From a virus: DNA of 46,221 bases. Of this stretch, positions 1,471-27,268 are shown in pieces. The DNA is taken from UHGV virus genome UHGV-0126501; one strand, written 5' to 3'. Position 1 is the first letter of the stretch; each line of letters opens with the position of its first letter. Both the position numbers and the translations under genes were made by a program. The notes under the pieces were generated by a model. The model ran no database searches, was not told the origin of the DNA, and was given only the letters and a program-made list of their open reading frames with translations.

Positions 1471-3927
1471 TTAAAAATCAGCCTGACTCGGGATCAGTTT
1501 TTGCCAGATAGCTGAAACGTATTTTGCCTGGTAACGGGCGTCATCAAGTGCATTATGGCGCTCACCTTCGAATGGAATAGCCGTTCTGGCATCGAAGTCT
1601 ATGGCTTTCCCCAGCTCAACGATTGTGCGTACATCGCGATCGTTGTAGTAACGCCACGGGCAGGGGATCCCCTGCCGTTCGTATGAACGGCGCAAAATCG
1701 TGTTGTCGAAGTTGGCTCCATTTCCCCAGACCTGAACAAAAAATTCACCGGAGTTTTCGTCGATAAATTCTCGTAATTGTAACAGTGCATCATCTAACGG
1801 GATTTCATCGGTCATAATGGCAGATTGCGCTTCGCGTGATTGCTTCAGCCACCATTTAATAGTGTCCCGATCAATGACTCCGCCAGCAGTTTCCAGATCG
1901 ATAGTCTTACTAAATTCCGGTCCCATATCTCCGGTTTGCGGATCGAAAAATATTGCACCTATTGAGATAATCGGGGCATCAGGATTTTTTCCCATGGTTT
2001 CGAGGTCAATCATTAGATGGTCACACGTCCTGCTGGTGGATGTGATTTCGTGATGACCGTTCACCTTAATTGAGTGATCTGCCGCCTCGCCAGTTTTATT
2101 ATCGCTGGCGTGGTCCTGAGCGCTGCCAGCGTTCTCCTTGTGTGGATGTTCAGCGCCTTCCATTTCCTCCGGATCGTTTTCCTGAACTTCAACCTGATTC
2201 TCTTCATCGAATGTTTCCTGGTATGTTGCGTCGCACATCACCGCGCCACAATCAGGGCAGTTGCCGCCACCGCTCTGACCGCAGGCGGTGCAGACTTTTT
2301 CCGGTTCCTGTTGCGCTACTGGCTCAGGTTGTTTCGTTTCTGGCTCGTTTTGTAACTCATTTGGGCTGTTTTGTTCCGCTTTCTGGTCGTTCTGTTCCGT
2401 TTCTTGCTGGTTCTGATTCACTGAATCGCGGGTTTCAATCCCCTTCACCCATTTCGGATCATTCGGGTCGCTAATCCCTGCAACAAATTCACCGCGAGAG
2501 GCCGCAAGCAACTTATCGGCGTCAGGCTGGCTGGTATTGGCTGCCTGCATAATTTTGTTTACTTCGTCAGCGGTAACTTTTACCTGATTAACCGGATCTA
2601 TCTGTGCCTGAGTATCCAGCGATTGCGTGTCCTGGCGATGTTCAGTTGTATCCGGCTCCATTGCTTCAGTCGTTGCCTGTTCATCTGCCATTGCGTCAGA
2701 CGGTTGTGATTTTTCCTCATTATTTTTTTCTTCTTCTGTTTCGCATTCAGCAGCCAGTTCGCGGTTAACTTCTTCCAGGATATCTTTTTCCGGTGTATGT
2801 CGTGCAGCAGCGAGAGTTTCCTCGGTAGGGTTCTCGTGATCAGTCTCCGTTAAATAGGCGTTGATATACCCCTGAAGGCGTCCCGGGTAATGATAAAACT
2901 CAGGGTGTGCGCTCCGGATAAGTGCAAAAATAGCGGCGCGGGAATAATCCAGGATACCCGGGATTGCGCGAAGTGCTGCGGACCATTCTTTGAACGGACT
3001 TTCTTTCTTCCGGACGACTTCTTTTGCGCGACGATAAACGCTGCCCGGAATTTCATAAATATTAAAATCCATCGGAAGTGTGGCCGCTGCAATCTCCACA
3101 TCCAGCGTATCGAAGGTGTGTACTAAATTCGGATTGCGATCGGTTTTGTTCCCTCCACCGGCATTAGCACCGGAAGCCGTGCGGGTGATGCGTGAAACAC
3201 GATTTCCTTTCATCCACTCTTTTGTCAGCAGACCGCGATCGGTGTAGTCAGCGCCCAGGTATGCTTCGAAAAAAGCAGTCATTAGCCCCAGGCCTGAATT
3301 GCCAGGATTAGGGAAAACTTTGTCAGTATCACGCACCAGTTTGTGGAGATCGCGAATTTCCAGTGGATCGAGCAGACTGGTTTTATGCGAAATAGCGAGG
3401 GCAGTAACAGCTGGTAGTTCTTCAGCCCGTGCAATGTGTAATGCCTGGAGTTCGTCGCGTGAAACGTGCGTTACCGGTTTTTCGCTGCCGCGTTGAGCAA
3501 GCCAGCGAATGGGCAGTTCCTGACCGGAAACCGGCAGAAGCATGTTCTCCTCAATCTCAGCCATGTCTTCGCCGTTGACGTTGGTATTGTCAGTGCTGGC
3601 TGGTTTATCCTGAACAGAGGGCGAGGGCGCGATAAGTACCATTGTGATACCATCTTCCCCGCCTTTTTCGTATCGGTTGCAGAATTCGGTATCAAACACG
3701 CCTTCCGGAGGAAGGTCATTCACAACGGGTAAATGGACGCGAACAGGTTTTTTAAAATCCTCTTCGTCAAATCCGGCATCGTCCATTGCGACAACACCGC
3801 GTGATATTGCAACCGATAATTTTTTTGCTGTGCGCCAGTAAAAACCGCCTTTAATCCCAAGACGTTTTCTGACTTTGTCATTTTTGGCTTCGTAATATAG
3901 TGCAATTTCTTCTTTATCAGTGCTCAT
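1471..3927 (-). CDS. Large exonuclease with C-terminal DEDDh (DnaQ-like) 3'-5' exonuclease domain, annotated in prophages as exodeoxyribonuclease VIII-like
   Basis: 818-aa ORF; C-terminus has IDLETMG (Exo I), ...WGNGANFD... and [11 protein letters not shown] (Exo III, H-x4-D) motifs; acidic central linker with a Cys4 cluster ([20 protein letters not shown]). Confidence 0.75.
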
Positions 3928-4004: not shown

Positions 4005-4208
4005 TTACGGTGCTATTTTAAGTCCTGCCGGGACTTCGTTATTATCCATGCGAATAACTTTATCGACCGGATAACAGTTACCGGGAATTTTCTGTTCATC
4101 TGCGGCAGCCATGCATTCTTTCATTGAACTGTATACGCCAGTAACCATGTCAACTGGTTCACCGGAAACAAGAAAAACCGTCAGAACAAGTGCAAATGTG
4201 GTATTCAT
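4005..4208 (-). CDS. Small hypothetical protein with N-terminal hydrophobic signal/TM segment
   Basis: In-frame ATG at 4208 preceded by AGGA; hydrophobic N-terminus MNTTFALVLTVFLVSG; start overlaps the stop of the upstream gene (ATGA). Confidence 0.45.
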   Translation of the reverse strand: MNTTFALVLTVFLVSGEPVDMVTGVYSSMKECMAAADEQKIPGNCYPVDKVIRMDNNEVPAGLKIAP

Positions 4209-4393
4209 TGCCAGTATCCTTTTTGCATCAGACGTAAACGGGCCAGCATTGAAACAATGCATATTTGATTTAATAACTCCCGTTCGTGTTTTCTCTTATT
4301 AATGGCATCTTCAGTAAATGCAGGGTCACTGATACTGACACCAATTTCAAAACAACCTTCAGACGTATTAACGTTTGGTAATAACGTTTCCAT
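4205..4393 (-). CDS. Small hypothetical protein
   Basis: ATG at 4393 with GAGGA 7 nt upstream; stop overlaps the next start. Confidence 0.4.
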   Translation of the reverse strand: METLLPNVNTSEGCFEIGVSISDPAFTEDAINKRKHERELLNQICIVSMLARLRLMQKGYWQ

Positions 4394-4961
4394 TATCGCG
4401 TCCTCAACAATGAATTTTGTGATGCGGTGCCTGGTGCCTCCAGGTGACGTTAACCAGTTAACAATTAACGCCGGAATACAGGGAAACCGACCCATGAAAC
4501 AAATACAGAGTACCGATCATTTTTTTTAACTGTTCCGCGTGCGCTCAGCCGCATTCACCGCATCACAAAATTCACTTTAAAAAGGGCGGACATCAGCCAG
4601 CAATGAAACTGATGCCGCCAAAGGTACAAATCAACATGGAGTGTTGTAGCGGGGTTGTCACTTAAGCGTATGGTCAACCTGACAACCCGGTGCCACTAAT
4701 GGGGTAAGGATAACCCCGCCATACTTACCGCTGCGCCATTTCGCGGATTGCCACAACCGGAAGCGCACGGTCGAATTAAATTTAACGACACCGTACAGTG
4801 AGGCGAACTTCGCCGTGCGCTTTCGCGTTATGCCCTGACTTTTCAGGGATATATCCTTTCAGTAAACTGTCAGTGCCGGATTCTTATCCGTGTCCGGCGC
4901 ACGACAACACGCTGTCACGTGTGGTCTCCATTCTCAACCAGTAACCTCAATGGAGGATAAA

Positions 4962-12450: not shown

Positions 12451-12730
12451 AAGGAAACAAAACAGAAACAACAATTGCCGTTATCTGTTGTTACCATGGC
12501 AAGTAAACGTATCTCAGGCGAGCGCATTGCGCCGTTCTGACGCAGATAAACTAGCCTGGATAGATGGTGCTGGCAATAAAAAATAGCGTTTTCTTATCGG
12601 TGTCGGTAAGATTGCTGCGGGTGCTTGAGGCTGTCTGCCTCGGGCATGCCACTGTAAGGCAGACAGAGAAAAGCCCCAGTTAACATTACGCGTCTTGCAG
12701 GACGCTTAACATTAATCTGAGGCCCAATCT

Positions 12731-12943
12731 ATGCCATACAAACATAGGTTAGCCTCTTACGTGCCGAAAGGCAAGGAGAAGCAGGCTATGAAGCAGCAAA
12801 AGGCGATGTTAATCGCCCTGATCGTCATCTGTTTAACCGTCATAGTGACGGCACTGGTAACGAGGAAAGATCTCTGCGAGGTACGAATCCGAACCGGCCA
12901 GACGGAGGTTGCTGTTTTCGTGGACTACGAATCTGAGAAGTAA
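12731..12943 (+). CDS. Mok-like in-frame N-terminal extension of Hok (modulator of killing)
   Basis: Upstream in-frame ATG gives a 70-aa product, analogous to chromosomal MokC/HokC where Mok is an N-terminally extended Hok. Confidence 0.45.
   Translation: MPYKHRLASYVPKGKEKQAMKQQKAMLIALIVICLTVIVTALVTRKDLCEVRIRTGQTEVAVFVDYESEK
12788..12943 (+). CDS. hok: Hok/Gef-family type I toxin (small membrane peptide)
   Basis: MKQQKAMLIALIVICLTVIVTALVTRKDLCEVRIRTGQTEVAVF... matches the Hok/Gef signature (TM helix, LTRKxLCE, periplasmic tail); SD AAGGAGAAG. Confidence 0.9.
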   Translation: MKQQKAMLIALIVICLTVIVTALVTRKDLCEVRIRTGQTEVAVFVDYESEK

Positions 12944-13334: not shown

Positions 13335-13352
13335 TAATGGGTATTGTGCTCT

Positions 13353-13838
13353 ATGGCTGAGATTGTTGAAGGAGTGCACTATCTTTCGGTTGATGATCTT
13401 ACTGAAATCAATCGCCTTTTAATTGAGCTTCAAACACCAGATGAACCTGTAGGTGTGCTGAGTGTTGATAATTTAAGTTCTTCTCAGGCCCGTCCCAGCA
13501 TGGTTCGATGGTATGAACAGACTAATGACATGTTTGTACTGGCATCGGTATTGATTGAAAGTCTGATTCAGAATCATCCGTTTGCTAATGCGAACAAACG
13601 AACAGCTATGATGGCTGGTTACGTCTTCTTGTTGTTGAATGGCTATGAGTTAACAGCACCAGGCGATGAAATCGTGGAAATGGCAGAGGGACTGGCCTGC
13701 AAAACCTATACTCGAGAAGATCTCGAGAACTGGTTGTGTTATTGGTCTCGTGCGTATGACAGTCGGGAATTATGTAAAACAGGCGCAACTATTGTTTTGT
13801 ATGAAACTATCAAGCTTAAAATAGAACAGCAAAACTAA
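13353..13838 (+). CDS. Doc (death-on-curing) / Fic-family toxin
   Basis: Doc-type Fic motif HPFANANKRTA (H-x-F-x-[DN]-[AG]-N-K-R). Confidence 0.8.
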   Translation: MAEIVEGVHYLSVDDLTEINRLLIELQTPDEPVGVLSVDNLSSSQARPSMVRWYEQTNDMFVLASVLIESLIQNHPFANANKRTAMMAGYVFLLLNGYELTAPGDEIVEMAEGLACKTYTREDLENWLCYWSRAYDSRELCKTGATIVLYETIKLKIEQQN

Positions 13839-16005: not shown

Positions 16006-16017
16006 GGCTTCGCTTAA
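15988..16017. other. 13-bp perfect stem hairpin spanning the convergent stop codons of Q (+) and the C5-methyltransferase (-)
   Basis: TTAAGCGAAGCCC-AATA-GGGCTTCGCTTAA; no U-tract on either side. Confidence 0.6.
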
Positions 16018-17054
16018 ATCGACGAAATTATAGCTCTCCCAAGTGCTTCAGCCATCTTGGGAGGAACCGCATTCCCAATTTGTTTTGCTTTTGATACTAA
16101 CGACCCCGTGAAGGAATAGTCTAATGGGAATGTCTGTAATAACGCAGCCTCTCTAACTGAAATTGCTCGGTCTTGTTCAGGATGCCCGAAACGTCCATTC
16201 GAATAGCTTATACACCTAGTCGTTAAGCCACTTGCAGGTTTGTCCCATGAAAGACGTCCATAAACATCCGTATGCCCTTTATATTTCTTATGGCATTCTA
16301 AGATCAAATTCTCAGGCCAAGACTCCCTTCCTTTTCCCTCTGGGGTAGCTTTTATGCGTTTAATATTCAGTTCGGACAGCCTGGCTGCTGTGTGATCAAT
16401 TATCTCTTTATGAGTTTCACCTGCAGCTATAGGTGGTAAATTACCGATCCAATCTCTTACCGTTGCAAACGGAGTTTCTACTCCGTCATGAGTTTTGGGT
16501 GGGAGCTTAATATGTGTGTGTCTTGACGCCAGCAAAACAAAACGTTCACGGGTCTGAGGAACTCCGAACCACAAAGCAGGAACAACACCAAAATCAACGT
16601 TGTAGTTATGATGAGTTAAAACTTCAAGAAATTTCTGGAAGTTTCCGTTATTGATATCGACGTTTTGGATTCCAGGCACATTTTCTATCAGTACGAAATC
16701 AGGAACATAATAAGATACAAAACGTGCAAATTCAGTCAGGAGATCTTTCCTGGGATCGTCGTTGTTCCGTGTTTTGTTCTGTTTTGAGAATGGTTGACAT
16801 GGGGCACATCCGCAAAACAAAGTCAGGGCTTTACATTTTTTTGAGTCAGAAATTAGATGATTAATATCTTCAACATGTGTATCTTTGATATCACCATTGA
16901 TGAAATGTGCTAATGGATTGTTTTTCTTGAAGGTATTAGACGAGTCTAGATCAATATCTAAACCAAATATAATTTCCATACCCACTGCTTTTAGGCCTGC
17001 ACTAGTGCCTCCGCAGCCGGAAAAAAAATCGTATACATGTATCTTTTTAGTCAT
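16014..17054 (-). CDS. DNA (cytosine-5)-methyltransferase
   Basis: Motif I FSGCGG, motif IV PCQPFS, motif VI ENV, motif VIII QTRERF, motif X GNAVPP. Confidence 0.9.
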   Translation of the reverse strand: MTKKIHVYDFFSGCGGTSAGLKAVGMEIIFGLDIDLDSSNTFKKNNPLAHFINGDIKDTHVEDINHLISDSKKCKALTLFCGCAPCQPFSKQNKTRNNDDPRKDLLTEFARFVSYYVPDFVLIENVPGIQNVDINNGNFQKFLEVLTHHNYNVDFGVVPALWFGVPQTRERFVLLASRHTHIKLPPKTHDGVETPFATVRDWIGNLPPIAAGETHKEIIDHTAARLSELNIKRIKATPEGKGRESWPENLILECHKKYKGHTDVYGRLSWDKPASGLTTRCISYSNGRFGHPEQDRAISVREAALLQTFPLDYSFTGSLVSKAKQIGNAVPPKMAEALGRAIISSI

Positions 17055-17057
17055 TAT

Positions 17058-18848
17058 CTACCTCACTCTTGGTCTGATAGTATCATTATCTAAAAAGATT
17101 TGCAGCAACTCTCGAGTTTTCGTTAACATTTCATGATCATTCGGTATTTTATTTAGCATTCTAATTTGAGTTTCAAAGATATCATCACTAGTAACATTAT
17201 CCAGCCCAGTATCGAGTTTACAAATTTCCTTAGTAATTTGTTTAGCATCTTGAACGTCTTTCGAAATTAATTCTTTATATTCCTTGTAGTCTCCATAGAC
17301 ATTTTCAATAAGAAATATTTCAGGCGTGTAAACAGGAAGGAAACCGATGCTATCGTGAATGAAATCGATGAAATCTCTTTGCATTTTATATTTTTGGCTA
17401 TGATTAGCTACACCTTTAGAGCCATCGCAGTTAAATTTGATGTCTTGGTTTGTTATTGATTTTATAATATCCTGAAGATTAGGGTTCTCGTTTTCTGGTA
17501 TTGAGTCAGAGGTTGGGTAGTTATCAACAATAGATTGATCACCATCTAGCAAAAAAATAACGTTTTTAACGTTAGCAACACATAATGGGGCTGCTAAAGT
17601 TTGAAAAATACTTCCGGCCCCTCCAGGAAAGTGCTTGACTTCAAAGGAGTTTAATAATGCTTCACCACCTGCTTTAAGAGCTTTCTCTACAAACCTCTTA
17701 GCCAAGCGATCTTCTACAATAACTGTTCTCTTCTCGATTCGCTCACCAAGGATGAAGAAAGATTCTTCTGGGCTGACATTTTGCAGAACATCAACTTTTC
17801 CTAATTTATCATTCAGGCAAAATAATTTTATAGCATTTTTCGGTAAGTCTTTTACTATTGTTGATGAATGAGTGGATATCACAATTTGATGTTTCTTTTT
17901 AATTGCTTGTTCAGATAAAAATTCCATTAATTGGCATTGTGCTGAAGGGTGAAGCGATACTTCAGGTTCGTCTAAAAGAATTAGTGATGCGTTTGGACTG
18001 TCTATTAGTTTATGTACTAAAATAGATACGGCGAATTCTCCACTACCAGCGAATGCTTCAGAATATTTTAAGTTTTCTGACTGAAGTATAATTGTTGGAG
18101 CTTTGTCATTCGTAAATAAGCAATGCTCGATAAGTCTAATACTAGTGTATTTTCGCCCTAAAATTTTGCTGATTGCCTCAACTTTATTTTTGCCTAATAA
18201 AGTATTGACAAAGAGTTTATCTTTTTTACCTTTGTGGGGTTGATATTTTTTTAGATCGTTATCGATGATTTCTCTTAGCATTTGACTGCGTTTTCTAAGA
18301 TAATCCTTCTTGGGATATGTATGAAAGTCAGAATGATAAAAGAATTTATCGAATGCACTTATCGTTGCTCTGAAATCTAAATAGATTACATTTTTATCAA
18401 TGGCTTTCCATCGTGTTTTTAATTGGTTATCCGAAAGTATTGTATCAGGCATAGTAGCCATATTATCTGATTTTAGAGGCCTAGAAGGTTCCCAGTAGTC
18501 AGGATCATTTTCTTTAGAAATTCGGGTTTTGATTACTTCAACAATAGAATCAGTAGCTTTATCATAATATCCATAAATGAATCTTGAGCGACCACCGTCT
18601 TTAATTTCATCCACATCTGTAGAAAACCATAGGCTACCTAATGAATAGTTGTTTGGTGAGCCGAAAAGGGCTCTTAAAACTGAGCTTTTATTCGTTCCAT
18701 TTTGACCGACCAACGCCGTGACTGGATAATCAAAATCGATTTTGCTTCCTTCGGCGAGGTTTTTGAAAAATGGGAAACGAATATGTCTAATAAATGGCTC
18801 AATCTGAGCGGATGCCATAATTTGTTTTAGTTTTAAATGGTTGTTCAT
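17058..18848 (-). CDS. OLD-family-like ABC ATPase with C-terminal TOPRIM-like acidic motifs (putative ATP-dependent nuclease)
   Basis: P-loop GQNGTNKSS, Walker B/D-loop LILLDEPEVSLHP, C-terminal VIVEDR and LLDGDQS motifs; 3 nt upstream of the C5-MTase on the same strand; AT-rich. Confidence 0.65.
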   Translation of the reverse strand: MNNHLKLKQIMASAQIEPFIRHIRFPFFKNLAEGSKIDFDYPVTALVGQNGTNKSSVLRALFGSPNNYSLGSLWFSTDVDEIKDGGRSRFIYGYYDKATDSIVEVIKTRISKENDPDYWEPSRPLKSDNMATMPDTILSDNQLKTRWKAIDKNVIYLDFRATISAFDKFFYHSDFHTYPKKDYLRKRSQMLREIIDNDLKKYQPHKGKKDKLFVNTLLGKNKVEAISKILGRKYTSIRLIEHCLFTNDKAPTIILQSENLKYSEAFAGSGEFAVSILVHKLIDSPNASLILLDEPEVSLHPSAQCQLMEFLSEQAIKKKHQIVISTHSSTIVKDLPKNAIKLFCLNDKLGKVDVLQNVSPEESFFILGERIEKRTVIVEDRLAKRFVEKALKAGGEALLNSFEVKHFPGGAGSIFQTLAAPLCVANVKNVIFLLDGDQSIVDNYPTSDSIPENENPNLQDIIKSITNQDIKFNCDGSKGVANHSQKYKMQRDFIDFIHDSIGFLPVYTPEIFLIENVYGDYKEYKELISKDVQDAKQITKEICKLDTGLDNVTSDDIFETQIRMLNKIPNDHEMLTKTRELLQIFLDNDTIRPRVR

Positions 18849-19450: not shown

Positions 19451-20497
19451 ATGGCCAATACTGTAAAAATATCCAGTTGTGAGTTAATCAACGCTGATTG
19501 CCTGGAATTTATCCAGACCTTACCGGAAAACTCTGTCGATCTGATAGTCACAGACCCGCCATACTTTAAAGTGAAGCCTGAGGGCTGGGATAACCAGTGG
19601 AAGGGCGACGATGATTACCTGAAATGGCTGGATCAGTGTCTGGCGCAATTCTGGCGGGTACTGAAACCTGCCGGAAGTCTCTACCTGTTCTGTGGTCATC
19701 GCCTGGCATCTGATATCGAAATCATGATGCGTGAGCGCTTTAATGTGCTGAACCACATTATCTGGGCGAAGCCGTCCGGACGCTGGAACGGATGCAACAA
19801 GGAAAGCCTGCGGGCGTATTTCCCGGCAACAGAACGCATTCTGTTTGCAGAACATTATCAGGGGCCATACCAGCCCAAAAATGACGGCTATGCGGCAAAG
19901 GGGCGCGAGCTTAAGCAGCACGTGATGGCTCCGCTGATTTCTTACTTTCGTGATGCGCGTGAATCACTGGGGATAACGTCAAAACAGATAGCTGAAGCCA
20001 CCGGAAAGAAAAACATGGCTTCGCACTGGTTTGGTACCAGTCAGTGGCAGTTACCGAATGAGGCCGATTACAGTAAACTACAGGCGCTGTTTGCACGTGT
20101 GGCGGCAGAAAAACACCAGCGCGGTGAACTGGAGCAGCCACACCACCAGCTGGTCAGCACATACAGCGAACTGAACCGGCAATATGCCAGCCTGCTGGAG
20201 GAATACAAATCACTGCGGCGTTATTTTTCCGTATCGGCTGTCGTTCCTTATACGGATGTCTGGACGCACAAGCCCGTGCAGTATTATCCGGGCAAACATC
20301 CCTGTGAAAAACCGGCGGATATGTTGCGTCAGATAATTACTGCCAGCAGTCGTCCTGGCGATTTGGTCGCAGATTTTTTTATGGGGTCGGGGTCGACAAT
20401 AAAAGCGGCACTGTCGCTGGGACGCAGGGCGATTGGCGTGGAACTGGAAGAGGAACGTTTTAATCAGACGGTCAGAGAAATAACGAAAGATTTTTAA
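19451..20497 (+). CDS. DNA methyltransferase, beta-class amino-MTase (N6-adenine or N4-cytosine)
   Basis: Motif IV DPPY (LIVTDPPYF) precedes C-terminal motif I FxGxG (DFFMGSGST). Confidence 0.85.
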   Translation: MANTVKISSCELINADCLEFIQTLPENSVDLIVTDPPYFKVKPEGWDNQWKGDDDYLKWLDQCLAQFWRVLKPAGSLYLFCGHRLASDIEIMMRERFNVLNHIIWAKPSGRWNGCNKESLRAYFPATERILFAEHYQGPYQPKNDGYAAKGRELKQHVMAPLISYFRDARESLGITSKQIAEATGKKNMASHWFGTSQWQLPNEADYSKLQALFARVAAEKHQRGELEQPHHQLVSTYSELNRQYASLLEEYKSLRRYFSVSAVVPYTDVWTHKPVQYYPGKHPCEKPADMLRQIITASSRPGDLVADFFMGSGSTIKAALSLGRRAIGVELEEERFNQTVREITKDF

Positions 20498-20715: not shown

Positions 20716-20792
20716 GCGGGTATCGTATAATGGCTATTACCTCAGCTTTCCAGGCTGATGATGTGGGTTCGATTCCCGTCACCCGCTCTCCA
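20716..20792 (+). tRNA. tRNA-Gly(UCC)-like element, probably degenerate
   Basis: Cloverleaf can be drawn: acceptor GCGGGTA, D-arm with GG, anticodon stem TCAGC/GCTGA with loop TTTCCAG (anticodon TCC), T-loop GGTTCGATTCC. But A7-C66 mismatch, two G-U pairs in the T-stem, and a TCTCCA 3' end instead of CCA. Confidence 0.45.
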
Positions 20793-23794: not shown

Positions 23795-23850
23795 CTGGCT
23801 GTGATGCCTGTTTGTAGCCCCGCAAATGCGGGGCTTTTTTATATCTGGAG

Positions 23851-24249
23851 ATGATGATGGAAAAAACAGAAAACAAACCTGTTGCAATTGGTGCTGATGC
23901 TGCTCCGTTTAAGTTTGAGTTGTCTCAACTGGTGGAGATGCGCATCAGTGATGAATGGGGTGAGGTTAAAGCTCGCGCGCAGTATGCGGATGGCGAAAAC
24001 CAGTACTTGATCCACTACAAGGCTGCTGATGGTCGCGCCACAACGGCGTGGTTTGGTGAGTCAATGCTGGAAGCAACAGAAGATGATCGCCATCCGGGCT
24101 GTCCGGTATTTGCCGGTATGAAATTACCGGAAGGTGCAGTTGAACTGCAGCCGGGTGAGGTGTTCGTAATGACAGACATCATTGATGGTAAACCGCAGTA
24201 TTCGCGTATTGAAACTAACGGCAAGGACGTTTGTCTGGTTCGCAAGTAA
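23851..24249 (+). CDS. Hypothetical protein
   Basis: ORF after terminator GCCCCGCAAATGCGGGGCTTTTTT; triple ATG start region. Confidence 0.5.
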   Translation: MMMEKTENKPVAIGADAAPFKFELSQLVEMRISDEWGEVKARAQYADGENQYLIHYKAADGRATTAWFGESMLEATEDDRHPGCPVFAGMKLPEGAVELQPGEVFVMTDIIDGKPQYSRIETNGKDVCLVRK

Positions 24250-24643
24250 CTTGCATTACAGCAGCACTTCAGTGAGGGGCTGCGATAATGTGAGAAATAA
24301 AAAACCGGTCACAGGGAGCAGCTACACAGAACCGGCCGGCGAAGACCGCCAATACCACCCATGCTTCAGTAAAACATACATATGACATTAGCTGGTATTG
24401 ATGTAAATGCAATGTTACGCATCGACAAAAATAAAAAACCGGCAGGGGAAATCCATTGAAGATTTGCCGGTGGCAAAAGAGGGCCATGTTTTTAACCTTA
24501 GTCGCAGAGTTACGGAGTGCAACTACGAATGCTGCCGGTATATGGCTGAATGGCGTTTCAATGATGTACGTCATCTTATCTGTAAATGTTAATGATAAAC
24601 GCTCTCATTTGTGTGGGTCCTTCCGGTGGGGAGACCTGCCACG

Positions 24644-24655
24644 GGGCGGGAGCGG
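24644..24655. other. cosN-like cohesive-end site (GGGCGGGAGCGG) within a lambda-type cos region (about 24600-24830)
   Basis: Flanking sequence ACG|GGGCGG......CGCGGATTTTCGCTATTTATGAAAATTTT closely parallels the recalled phage lambda left end (GGGCGGCGACCTCGCGGGTTTTCGCTATTTATGAAAATTTTCCGG). Confidence 0.75.
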
Positions 24656-24748
24656 CGCGGATTTTCGCTATTTATGAAAATTTTTCGGGAAAAAGCGTGT
24701 CGGTACTTCTCGTGTATAACTCATTGTTTTTTCATCAATCACATCCGT

Positions 24749-24803
24749 AAAAGGTCCGACATGAAAGTGCCCGAAAAAGACGTTTTTGAGCACTTCCATG
24801 TCG
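24749..24803. promoter_or_regulatory. Long inverted repeat (18-bp arms, one mismatch) between cosN and Nu1; cosB-region element
   Basis: GGTCCGACATGAAAGTGC ... GCACTTCCATGTCGGACC; lambda has an analogous inverted repeat upstream of Nu1. Confidence 0.6.
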
Positions 24804-24831
24804 GACCCTGCATTTGATATGGAAATGTTTT

Positions 24832-25380
24832 ATGAAGGTTAATAAAAAGAAGCTCGCGGAAATTTTCAACGTGGATCCACGAACGATTGAACGCTGGCAG
24901 TCTCAGGGGCTCTCTTGTGTCTCTGGTGGTAGTAAGGGGGTTGAATCTGTATTTGATACCGCCATGGCAATTCAGTGGTATGCGCAGCGCGAAGCCGATA
25001 TTGAAAACGAAAAACTCCGCAAAGAGACCGAGGATTTGCGTGCGGCTGCGGAATCAGATTTACAACCCGGCACCATTGACTATGAGCGCTACCGACTCAC
25101 AAAAGCACAGGCTGATGCACAGGAACTGAAAAATGCCCGCGAAGAAGGGCTGGTACTGGAAACGGAATTGTTTACCTTCATTCTGCAACGTGTGGCACAG
25201 GAGATTTCGGGGATACTTGTACGTGTGCCGCTGACATTACAGCGTAAATATCCGGATATTTCACCGTCACACCTTGATGTGGTGAAAACTGAAATCGCAA
25301 AAGCCTCCAACGTTGCAGCTAAAGCTGGTGAGAACGTAGGCGGGTGGATTGATGATTTCAGACGCACAGAAGGCAGCTAA
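24832..25380 (+). CDS. nu1: Terminase small subunit (lambda Nu1-like)
   Basis: [27 protein letters not shown]... and ...[46 protein letters not shown] align closely with recalled lambda Nu1. Confidence 0.92.
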
Positions 25381-27268
25381 TGCAGCCGGTGCGATAGCAA
25401 CAGGGCTTGTATCTCTCAATATTCCGGTACCACTGACGACAGTTCAGTGGGCTGATCAGCATTATTATCTGCCAAAAGAGTCTTCATATACTCCCGGGCA
25501 ATGGGAAACACTGCCGTTTCAGGTTGCCATCATGAACAGCATGGGGAATGACCGGATCCGCACCGTTAATCTGATTAAATCGGCGCGTGTTGGTTACACC
25601 AAAATGCTGTTGGGGGTGGAGGCTTATTTTATTGAACACAAATCCCGTAACAGCCTGCTTTTTCAGCCGACAGATTCTGCGGCAGAAGATTTTATGAAAT
25701 CCCATGTCGAACCAACGATAAGAGACGTTCCTGTATTACTGGAGCTGGCTCCGTGGTTTGGCAGAAAACATCGGGACAACACGCTTACCCTGAAACGTTT
25801 CTCCTCCGGTGTGGGATTCTGGTGTCTGGGCGGAGCTGCTGCCAAAAACTACCGTGAAAAATCTGTGGATGTGGTCTGCTATGACGAACTCTCCTCGTTT
25901 GAACCGGATGTGGAAAAAGAAGGTTCACCAACTCTGCTTGGCGATAAGCGTATCGAAGGTTCGGTATGGCCTAAATCCATACGCGGCTCAACGCCCAAAA
26001 TTAAAGGTTTTTGCCAGATTGAAAAAGCCGCGAACGAATCTGCACATTTTATGCGGTTTTATGTGTCATGCCCTCATTGTGGTGAAGCCCAGTATCTGAA
26101 GTTTGGCGATGATGCGACAACCTTTGGCCTGAAATGGGAGAAGGGCAAGCCGGAGACGGTGTATTACCTGTGTGAACATAATGGCTGCGTGATCCGTCAG
26201 TCGGAACTTGACCAGACCGACGGGCGGTGGATTTGTGACAATACCGGGATGTGGACGCGTGACGGTCTGACATTTTACAGCGCCGGTGATGAGGAAATCC
26301 CGCCACCGCGCTCAATCTCGTATCACATCTGGACGGCATACAGCCCGTTCACCACCTGGGTACAGATTGTTTATGACTGGCTTGATGCACTGAAGGATCC
26401 GAATGGCGTCAAGACGTTCATTAACACCACGCTGGGGGAGCCTTATGAAGAGGCTGTGGCAGAAAAACTGAGCTTTGAGTTGTTGCTGGAAAAAGTCTGC
26501 CACTATGATGCGCAGGTTCCCCTGCGGGTGGTTTACCTGACCGCAGGGATCGACTCTCAGAAAAACCGTTATGAGATTTATGTCTGGGGCTGGGCTCCTG
26601 GCGAAGAAGCTTTTCTGATTGACAAGCAGATCATCATGGGGAGACCGGAAGATGAGGACACCCTTAAACGCGTTGATGCCGTGATCCGGAAAAAATACCG
26701 TCATGCAGATGGCACTGAAATTTCCATTTCCCGCGTCTGCTGGGATACCGGTGGTATTGACCAGGACATTGTGTATCAGCGATCCAGAAAACACGGCACT
26801 TTTTTTGTGCTCCCCATCAAAGGGGCGTCGGTGTACGGCAAGCCGGTGATCACCATGCCAAAAAAGCGAAACCAGCGTGGGGTGTTTTTGTGTGAGGTGG
26901 GTTCCGATACCGTCAAGGAAATGCTGTATGCGCGTTTTGCCCTGCCGGTGGTATCTGCCAGTGAAGTCGCACCGTATACCTTCCGTTTTCCGGATAACCC
27001 GGACATTTTTTCTGATGTTGAAGCTAAACAACTCGTGGCAGAAGAGCTGGTTGAAAAAGTTGTGAACGGGCGGGTGAAACTCCAGTGGGATGCCAGAAAA
27101 CGGCGTAATGAAGCTCTGGACTGTCTGGTGTATGCCTATGCAGCGCTGCGCATTTCCGTTCAGCGGTGGCAACTGGATCTGGATGCACTGGCCCGCGCCA
27201 GAAGAGATGAACAGGACGACGATGAAATGACTATTGAAGAAATCGCGGCTGCTCTGAGTGGAGGATAA
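25349..27268 (+). CDS. A: Terminase large subunit (lambda gpA-like)
   Basis: 639 aa; long colinear similarity to recalled lambda gpA (YYLPKES...WETLPFQ...KSARVGY[ST]KMLLGV.AYFIEHK...ICWDTGGID...). Confidence 0.95.

Follow-up and report, generated by a model that had tools for sequence, protein, structure and literature searches.

What kind of cos site does this virus carry, and does its unusual cohesive end matter for packaging? The window, by which we mean the whole 46,221-nucleotide stretch of the virus genome UHGV-0126501, had been described in a sequence-only reading as holding a lambda-type cos region with a variant 12-nt cohesive end, changed at five of its last six positions, that may affect packaging compatibility with lambda terminase. 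The variant itself was found as described. The string ACG-GGGCGGGAGCGG-CGCGGATTTTCGCTATTTATGAAAATTTT lies at 24641-24686, and the 12-mer GGGCGGGAGCGG, the predicted cohesive end, occupies 24644-24655; compared with GGGCGGCGACCT of lambda and phage 21, it carries mismatches at bp 7, 8, 9, 11 and 12, leaving 7 of 12 bases the same as in lambda. The features of a lambda-like cosN, GGGCGG and the flanking CG dinucleotides, are present at 24642-24657, and the exact pattern GGGCGG-N6-CGCGG has one site in the whole window, cosN itself.

Positions of the ends were taken from related phages. Megablast of the region 24400-25400 against phage 21 returned 88% identity over about 755 bp (E=0), a homology far above chance, and aligned bp 1 of the linear phage 21 record to 24644. 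The cdtI and Tritos records open at the homologous G, with GGGCGGGAGCGT, and the cdtI record ends in ...GGGTCCTTCCGGTGGGGTGGCCTGCCACG, at the homologous ...CCACG. We predict nicks at 24643/24644 on the top strand and at 24655/24656 on the bottom strand. Upstream lies a cosQ-like heptamer (Table 1); lambda cosQ we take to be GGGTCCT at lambda bp 48473-48479, and a G(G)GTCCT block stands 5' of cosN in every cos site sampled. The spacer from cosQ to the top-strand nick measures 22 bp (24622-24643), against 23 bp in lambda and phage 21, and the 22-bp spacing is also found in mEp460, cdtI and the Escherichia coli strain HS13-1.

To the right of the nick, subsites were assigned using the phage 21 annotation of records OL657228 and M81255, which places the cohesive end at bp 1-12, I2 at bp 30-44 (196-210 in M81255), R3 at bp 50-65, R2 at bp 107-122 in opposite orientation and R1 at bp 150-166; I1 is annotated at bp 74-86 in OL657228 and at 238-252, equivalent to bp 72-86, in M81255. 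The window shares I2, R3, I1, the inverted R2 and R1 with phage 21 in the same order and with the same spacing. Its R boxes stand at 21-type offsets from bp 1, and the cores of R3 and R2 are identical to those of phage 21. A complete lambda-like cos layout results, running from R3 through an IHF site, the inverted R2 and R1 to a Nu1-family terS and a gpA-family terL. Among the differences from phage 21, bp 7-12 read CGACCT in phage 21 and GAGCGG in the window, bp 18 is A rather than T, R1 has three substitutions, and left of the nick the homology is gone except for the cosQ heptamer.

Table 1. Predicted features of the cos region and terminase genes (window coordinates).
Feature	Position	Strand	Basis or remark
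cosQ-like heptamer GGGTCCT	24615-24621	+	Read from sequence
cosN	24642-24657	+	GGGCGGGAGCGG with conserved CG dinucleotide on either side; phage 21 bp 1-12 (annotated cohesive end) aligns here
I2-equivalent (IHF-site region)	24673-24687	+	Inside CGCGGATTTTCGCTATTTATGAAAATTTTTC, a block conserved in lambda-like phages; aligned to M81255 I2
cosB R3, AAGCGTGTCGGTACTT	24693-24708	+	bp 50-65 from left end, same as phage 21; 15/16 identical
I1-equivalent IHF site	~24715-24729	+	Between R3 and R2; aligned to phage 21 I1
cosB R2, AAGGTCCGACATGAAA (+ strand letters)	24751-24766	-	Opposite to R3 and R1; 16/16 identical to phage 21 R2
cosB R1, TTCCATGTCGGACCCT	24794-24809	+	Aligned to phage 21 R1 bp 150-166; 13/16 identical
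terS (phage 21 gene 1 / Nu1 family), 182 aa	24832-25380	+	Pfam Phage_Nu1, E=2e-83; ATG at 24832
terL (gpA family), 638 aa	25352-27268	+	Pfam GpA_ATPase and GpA_nuclease, both full length; ATPase and endonuclease domains intact

The window site and lambda cos share GGGCGG, the CG flanks, the I2-region block, the arrangement cosQ-cosN-cosB with R3, I1, R2 and R1, and the Nu1 and gpA families; they differ in 5 of 12 overhang bases, in the spacer (1 bp shorter in the window) and in R-box sequence, the last being the lambda/21 specificity difference. The R boxes of the window read 21-type GTGTCGGTAC / GGTCCGACATG, and the lambda R-box sequence (CGTTTCC...TTCTTC; GCGTTTCCGTTCTTC) is absent at window R3, R2 and R1. 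At the positions of the 21-type R-box letters, the lambda-type loci sampled show GGCGTTTCCGTTCTTCTTCG. The label 'lambda-type' should consequently give way to 'phage-21-type', given that the true cosB (R3/R2/R1) is of phage 21 type and accompanied by a 21-like TerS, and what had been taken for conserved cosB-side sequence (CGCGGATTTTCGCTATTTATGAAAATTTT) is the right flank of cosN plus the I2 region, common to nearly all sampled lambda-like cos sites.

An inverted repeat had also been noted before the Nu1-family terS, at 24749-24803. The repeat is real and has 18-nt arms, with one mismatch, but its true coordinates are 24753-24807, 4 nt further right. The arms can be extended to 25 nt at 88% (24753-24777 on the left, 24783-24807 on the right), where the left arm corresponds to R2 and the right arm to R1. 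It is thus not an additional feature: it consists of the two TerS-binding boxes in opposite orientation, which are annotated so in phage 21, and the repeat finder also picks up the relationship between R3 and R2. A role as terminator or RNA element was considered and rejected, since the hairpin flagged at 24794-24824 is R1 plus downstream sequence with only three G-C pairs and Rfam gave no match there. Between the lysis genes and cos, at 23816-23835 (+), there is a strong terminator-like hairpin, in which AGCCCCGC-AAAT-GCGGGGCT runs into a stretch of T; it lies just 5' of an unannotated 132-aa ORF (23851-24249).

The terminase genes agree with the subsites. TerS is 94% identical to 21 gp1, and its residues 1-27 are those of 21 gp1 save for K7R, with E20 and S24 included. 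TerL is 82% identical to 21 gp2, its C-terminal (nuclease) half being visibly more diverged than the N-terminal half when read off the alignment, and terL is followed by gpW and then a lambda-family portal. Residues 20 and 24 of TerS are named as lambda/21 discrimination determinants by Feiss et al. (2015; PMC4669245). Taken together, the 21-type R boxes and a 21-like TerS that includes these two residues indicate a cosB and TerS of phage 21 specificity, not of lambda specificity. Packaging specificity of the window is thereby predicted to be 21-type and set by cosB and TerS, and a packaging incompatibility with lambda would stem from these elements, not from the overhang.

Published work on lambda-like phages bears directly on the overhang. 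According to Feiss et al. (2015; PMC4669245), differences at bp 7-12 are common among such phages: N15 and phiD326 differ from lambda at 9 and 12, and Gifsy-1 at 8, 9 and 11. The variants documented there, like that of the window, retain the left half, the CG flanks and cosQ and vary only at bp 7-12; the examples quoted there (N15, phiD326, Gifsy-1, mEp213) have two to three changes relative to lambda, compared with five in the window allele. The paper also reports a yield about 10-fold lower with G2C but no phenotype with the symmetric C11G, an asymmetry that depends on proximity to cosB: R3-bound TerS anchors and positions TerL for the bottom-strand nick, so that right-half changes leave nicking intact. 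An effect of the overhang variant on compatibility with lambda terminase, as originally proposed, is therefore unlikely, bp 7-12 changes including C11G being without measurable effect in cos cleavage and lambda as well as N15-hybrid terminases having shown no cosN specificity (PMC4669245). The overhang variant can instead affect annealing with the ends of other alleles in mixed chromosomes; according to the same study (PMC4669245), a 2-nt end mismatch reduced the yield of viable phage by only a factor of about 4 and can survive replication.

By homology with lambda and phage 21, cleavage of the window site would proceed as follows. TerS dimers would occupy R3, R2 and R1, with the DNA bent at I1 by IHF. 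R3-bound TerS would then place one TerL endonuclease for a bottom-strand nick between bp 12 and 13, and a second TerL would nick the top strand, each at the position predicted above, yielding 12-nt 5' ends that read GGGCGGGAGCGG. Since the bottom-strand nick would be set by the TerS-R3 anchor and not by sequence, bp 7-12 would be free to vary, and the overhang need only be self-complementary for cyclisation.

The left side of the site has a different affinity. The 29-mer at 24633-24661 (GACCTGCCACG-GGGCGGGAGCGG-CGCGGA) was found exactly in 58 complete E. coli genomes by short-query search, and phage mEp460 matches its 27 central bases (24635-24661), the complete overhang among them, without a difference; in that phage a Gifsy-2-like terS follows about 150 bp downstream of the site. 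With the cos sites of mEp460, cdtI and Tritos, the Gifsy-2-like terminase group, the window shares the cosQ heptamer, the 22-bp spacer type ...CCTGCCACG and the CGCGGA that follows the overhang; mEp460 has the 12-mer of the window, while cdtI and Tritos carry GAGCGT. From bp 19 rightwards the sequences are unrelated: in mEp460-type contexts the right flank reads AAAAGGCTAG..., TerS is unrelated and TerL is 25% identical to that of the window. Conversely, the cdtI/mEp460 (Gifsy-2-like) right flank CGCGGAAAAAGGCT... and Gifsy-2-like terS/terL are absent in the window. Among cdtI-type sites of the IMG/VR sample, GAGCGT occurs at least 92 times, GAGCGG at least 24, GAGCAT at least 11 and CAGCGG at least twice, and the overhang of Salmonella phage Fels-1 is GGGCGGCAGCGG, the CAGCGG allele. 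The window overhang is thus an allele that occurs naturally and commonly in the cdtI/mEp460 group; in the window, a 21-type initiation side takes over from about bp 18.

We consider it very probable that this is the functional cos of a phage-21-like E. coli lambdoid prophage, and that the site is a mosaic of a left part of cdtI/mEp460 (Gifsy-like) type and a right part of phage 21 type. As judged from sequence comparison, the termination side (cosQ, the 22-bp spacer and the 12-bp end through CGCGGA) would be of cdtI/mEp460 type, and the initiation side (I2, R3, I1, R2, R1, terS and terL) of phage 21 type. The cosQ-to-nick spacing, 1 bp below that of phage 21, was counted against this reading.

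How freely overhangs vary could be read from collections. Natural cosN variation is reportedly the subject of a dedicated survey by Vahanian et al. in 2017. In an IMG/VR sample that was anchored on the right and made no assumption on the overhang (lambda/21-type contexts, 234 sites), the left half GGGCGG was present in 233 sites and the preceding ACG was invariant, whereas bp 7-12 took at least nine forms. With the lambda/21-type right flank fixed, IMG/VR held 114 sites in which bp 12 is not T; their alleles were AAGGCG (82), CAGCGG (21), CAGGCG (4), CAGACG (3) and four singletons, and GAGCGG was found in none of them. The JGI metagenomes held no GAGCG[G/T] with a window-type flank, the 89-bp cos core had no exact match among complete E. 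coli genomes, and GAGCGG with a 21-type flank was in none of the eight E. coli sites read in detail. A scan of genome contigs gave 17 matches, 16 of which, in GC-rich MAGs, were due to chance or to coding sequence, with one conserved coding stretch recurring; the sole real cos, from Escherichia sp. E1V33, carries AAGGCG. Phages mEp213 and LLS have GGGCGGCGCGCT. A literature search for the 12-mer, related alleles and their reverse complements retrieved only unrelated papers on G-quadruplexes, i-motifs and cloning. Only the particular mosaic, this overhang with a 21-type cosB, appears to be unreported in the collections searched.

Several IMG/VR contigs carry two cos sites. On two of them, L010 and L091, the sites are lambda-type and face opposite ways; on L010 they lie about 0.5 kb apart (4189-4214 + and 4705-4730 -). 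Three others (L264, L270 and L333) have two cdtI-type sites each in direct orientation, 2.5-10.7 kb apart. Such pairs may reflect tandem elements, adjacent satellites or repeats from assembly.

The distribution of alleles bears on a reading in line with the original proposal, according to which the overhang marks a change in nuclease specificity, terminase and cosN having co-evolved into a packaging-compatibility barrier. The greater divergence of the TerL nuclease half from 21 gp2 would fit such a history. We nevertheless regard it as very unlikely and rejected it, for the cosQ-cosN module of mEp460 is identical and serves an unrelated TerS and a TerL of only 25% identity, and single alleles span cosB types: in IMG/VR, AAGGCG is joined to three kinds of cosB, those of lambda and 21 and one other, and to several left flanks. 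The same cosN module with unrelated terminases, and one allele with several cosB types, imply that allele and terminase type are uncoupled, and the several left flanks of AAGGCG imply in addition that allele, cosQ side and cosB side reassort. The absence of cosN specificity in lambda and N15-hybrid terminases, cited above, also speaks against co-evolution.

A second alternative is that the cos is crippled, the right-half changes blocking efficient nicking by the 21-like TerL so that the prophage cannot package itself. This would be in keeping with the failure to find the exact combination of cosN and 21-type cosB in IMG/VR, JGI metagenomes and the complete E. coli genomes inspected, with G at bp 7 where the closest relatives have C, and with a loss of symmetry: three of the six symmetric pairs within and flanking the overhang remain, the 6/7 and 2/11 pairs being lost. 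Yet the same 12-mer occurs in an isolated phage, mEp460, and is a common allele, as the IMG/VR and E. coli counts given above attest; lambda right-half mutations including C11G were without measurable effect in the work cited (PMC4669245); and the left half, CG flanks, R boxes and both terminase genes are intact. We find a crippled site distinctly improbable. That the window TerL cuts the GAGCGG allele efficiently is something we infer, because neither IMG/VR nor JGI metagenomes nor the inspected E. coli genomes yielded this allele next to a 21-type right flank and the closest relatives have C at bp 7.

These closest relatives, mostly cattle isolates (among them OkiPb01716, C311, C5, EC11, RM8082 and NS-NP030), carry CAGCGG between the same flanks, and strain TW10690 combines GAGCGT with a 21-type cosB. 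Between the window and OkiPb01716 there are eight differences in 689 bp, five of which fall within 24614-24650 (the cosQ-cosN spacer and bp 7) and none within 24651-25000; in other relatives, homology ends just left of cosQ, at about 24603. Both the cluster of differences and the loss of homology suggest that cos acts as a mosaic boundary or exchange hotspot. The window would seem to be a bp-7 C-to-G derivative of a common haplotype, and the change may have been acquired by a short exchange with a cos of the GACC...GAGCGG type. Another explanation, in which the site is really of CAGCGG type and an error of sequencing or assembly has put G at bp 7, accords with C in all nearest relatives and is nonetheless extremely unlikely: most cdtI/mEp460-type sites have G at bp 7, TW10690 shows it together with a 21-type cosB, and in the window two further spacer differences are linked to it, the three together giving 29 bp of exact identity to a different natural cos type.

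The overhang of the window recurs outside phages of the cdtI/mEp460 group. E. coli HS13-1 (NZ_CP026491.1, 2123233-2130261) has the identical 12-mer and flanks, with cos at 3512-3523 of the extracted locus (L255), in a satellite-like element in the order Icd-like, DUF4222, primase, SSB, cos, a ClpP-like protease/major-capsid fusion and a DUF1441 protein. The element looks like a phage-inducible island that encodes its own capsid protein and has its cohesive ends in common with cdtI/mEp460-type phages. More far-reaching, and in our judgement unlikely, is the view that the window represents a rare natural chimera, in which a 21-type packaging machine has the cohesive end of cdtI/mEp460-type phages and of capsid-encoding satellite-like islands. 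If so, the exact 29-bp patch at 24633-24661 and the concentration of five of eight differences in 24614-24650 would be the trace of unrelated elements having recently exchanged sequence at cos. A chromosome that begins at the cos of one element and finishes at that of another could then, having matched ends, be fully viable, and this would allow recombination or transduction across families.

Other parts of the window carry accessory genes. A C5 cytosine DNA methylase and a 596-aa AAA_15/AAA_21 (AbiEii-like) ATPase adjoin at 16014-17054 (-) and 17058-18848 (-), on the strand opposite to the late genes, with a DUF968 gene on one side and the lysis region on the other; the two could be a moron or a pair that defends against phages. 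Another DNA methylase, of N6/N4 type, lies at 19451-20497 (+), just upstream of the tRNA and lysis genes, and tRNA-Gly(UCC) at 20716-20788 (+) separates it from the lysis cassette. Rfam detected a sok antitoxin RNA at 12619-12793 (+) with 117 bits against a gathering score of 59, a strong match that implies a hok/sok-type toxin-antitoxin locus in the prophage. We also noted a small Fic/DOC-family protein (13344-13838, +) and an 818-aa protein (1471-3927, -) with Exonuclease VIII (RecE-like) and Rv2179c-like 3'-5' exoribonuclease domains.

Returning to the mosaic cos of a phage-21-like prophage, the variant is not new: it is an existing natural allele inside documented and mechanistically explained variation, real but ordinary. 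It matters little beyond annotation, where it fixes the packaging type of this genome (cos, 21 specificity, predicted ends) and in that way helps to predict helper/satellite relationships and to orient the genome. Differing from lambda at five positions of bp 7-12, it is a further natural case of the published rule that nothing constrains the right half of cosN, and of the independent reassortment of overhang alleles, cosQ-side modules and cosB/terminase modules in E. coli prophages.
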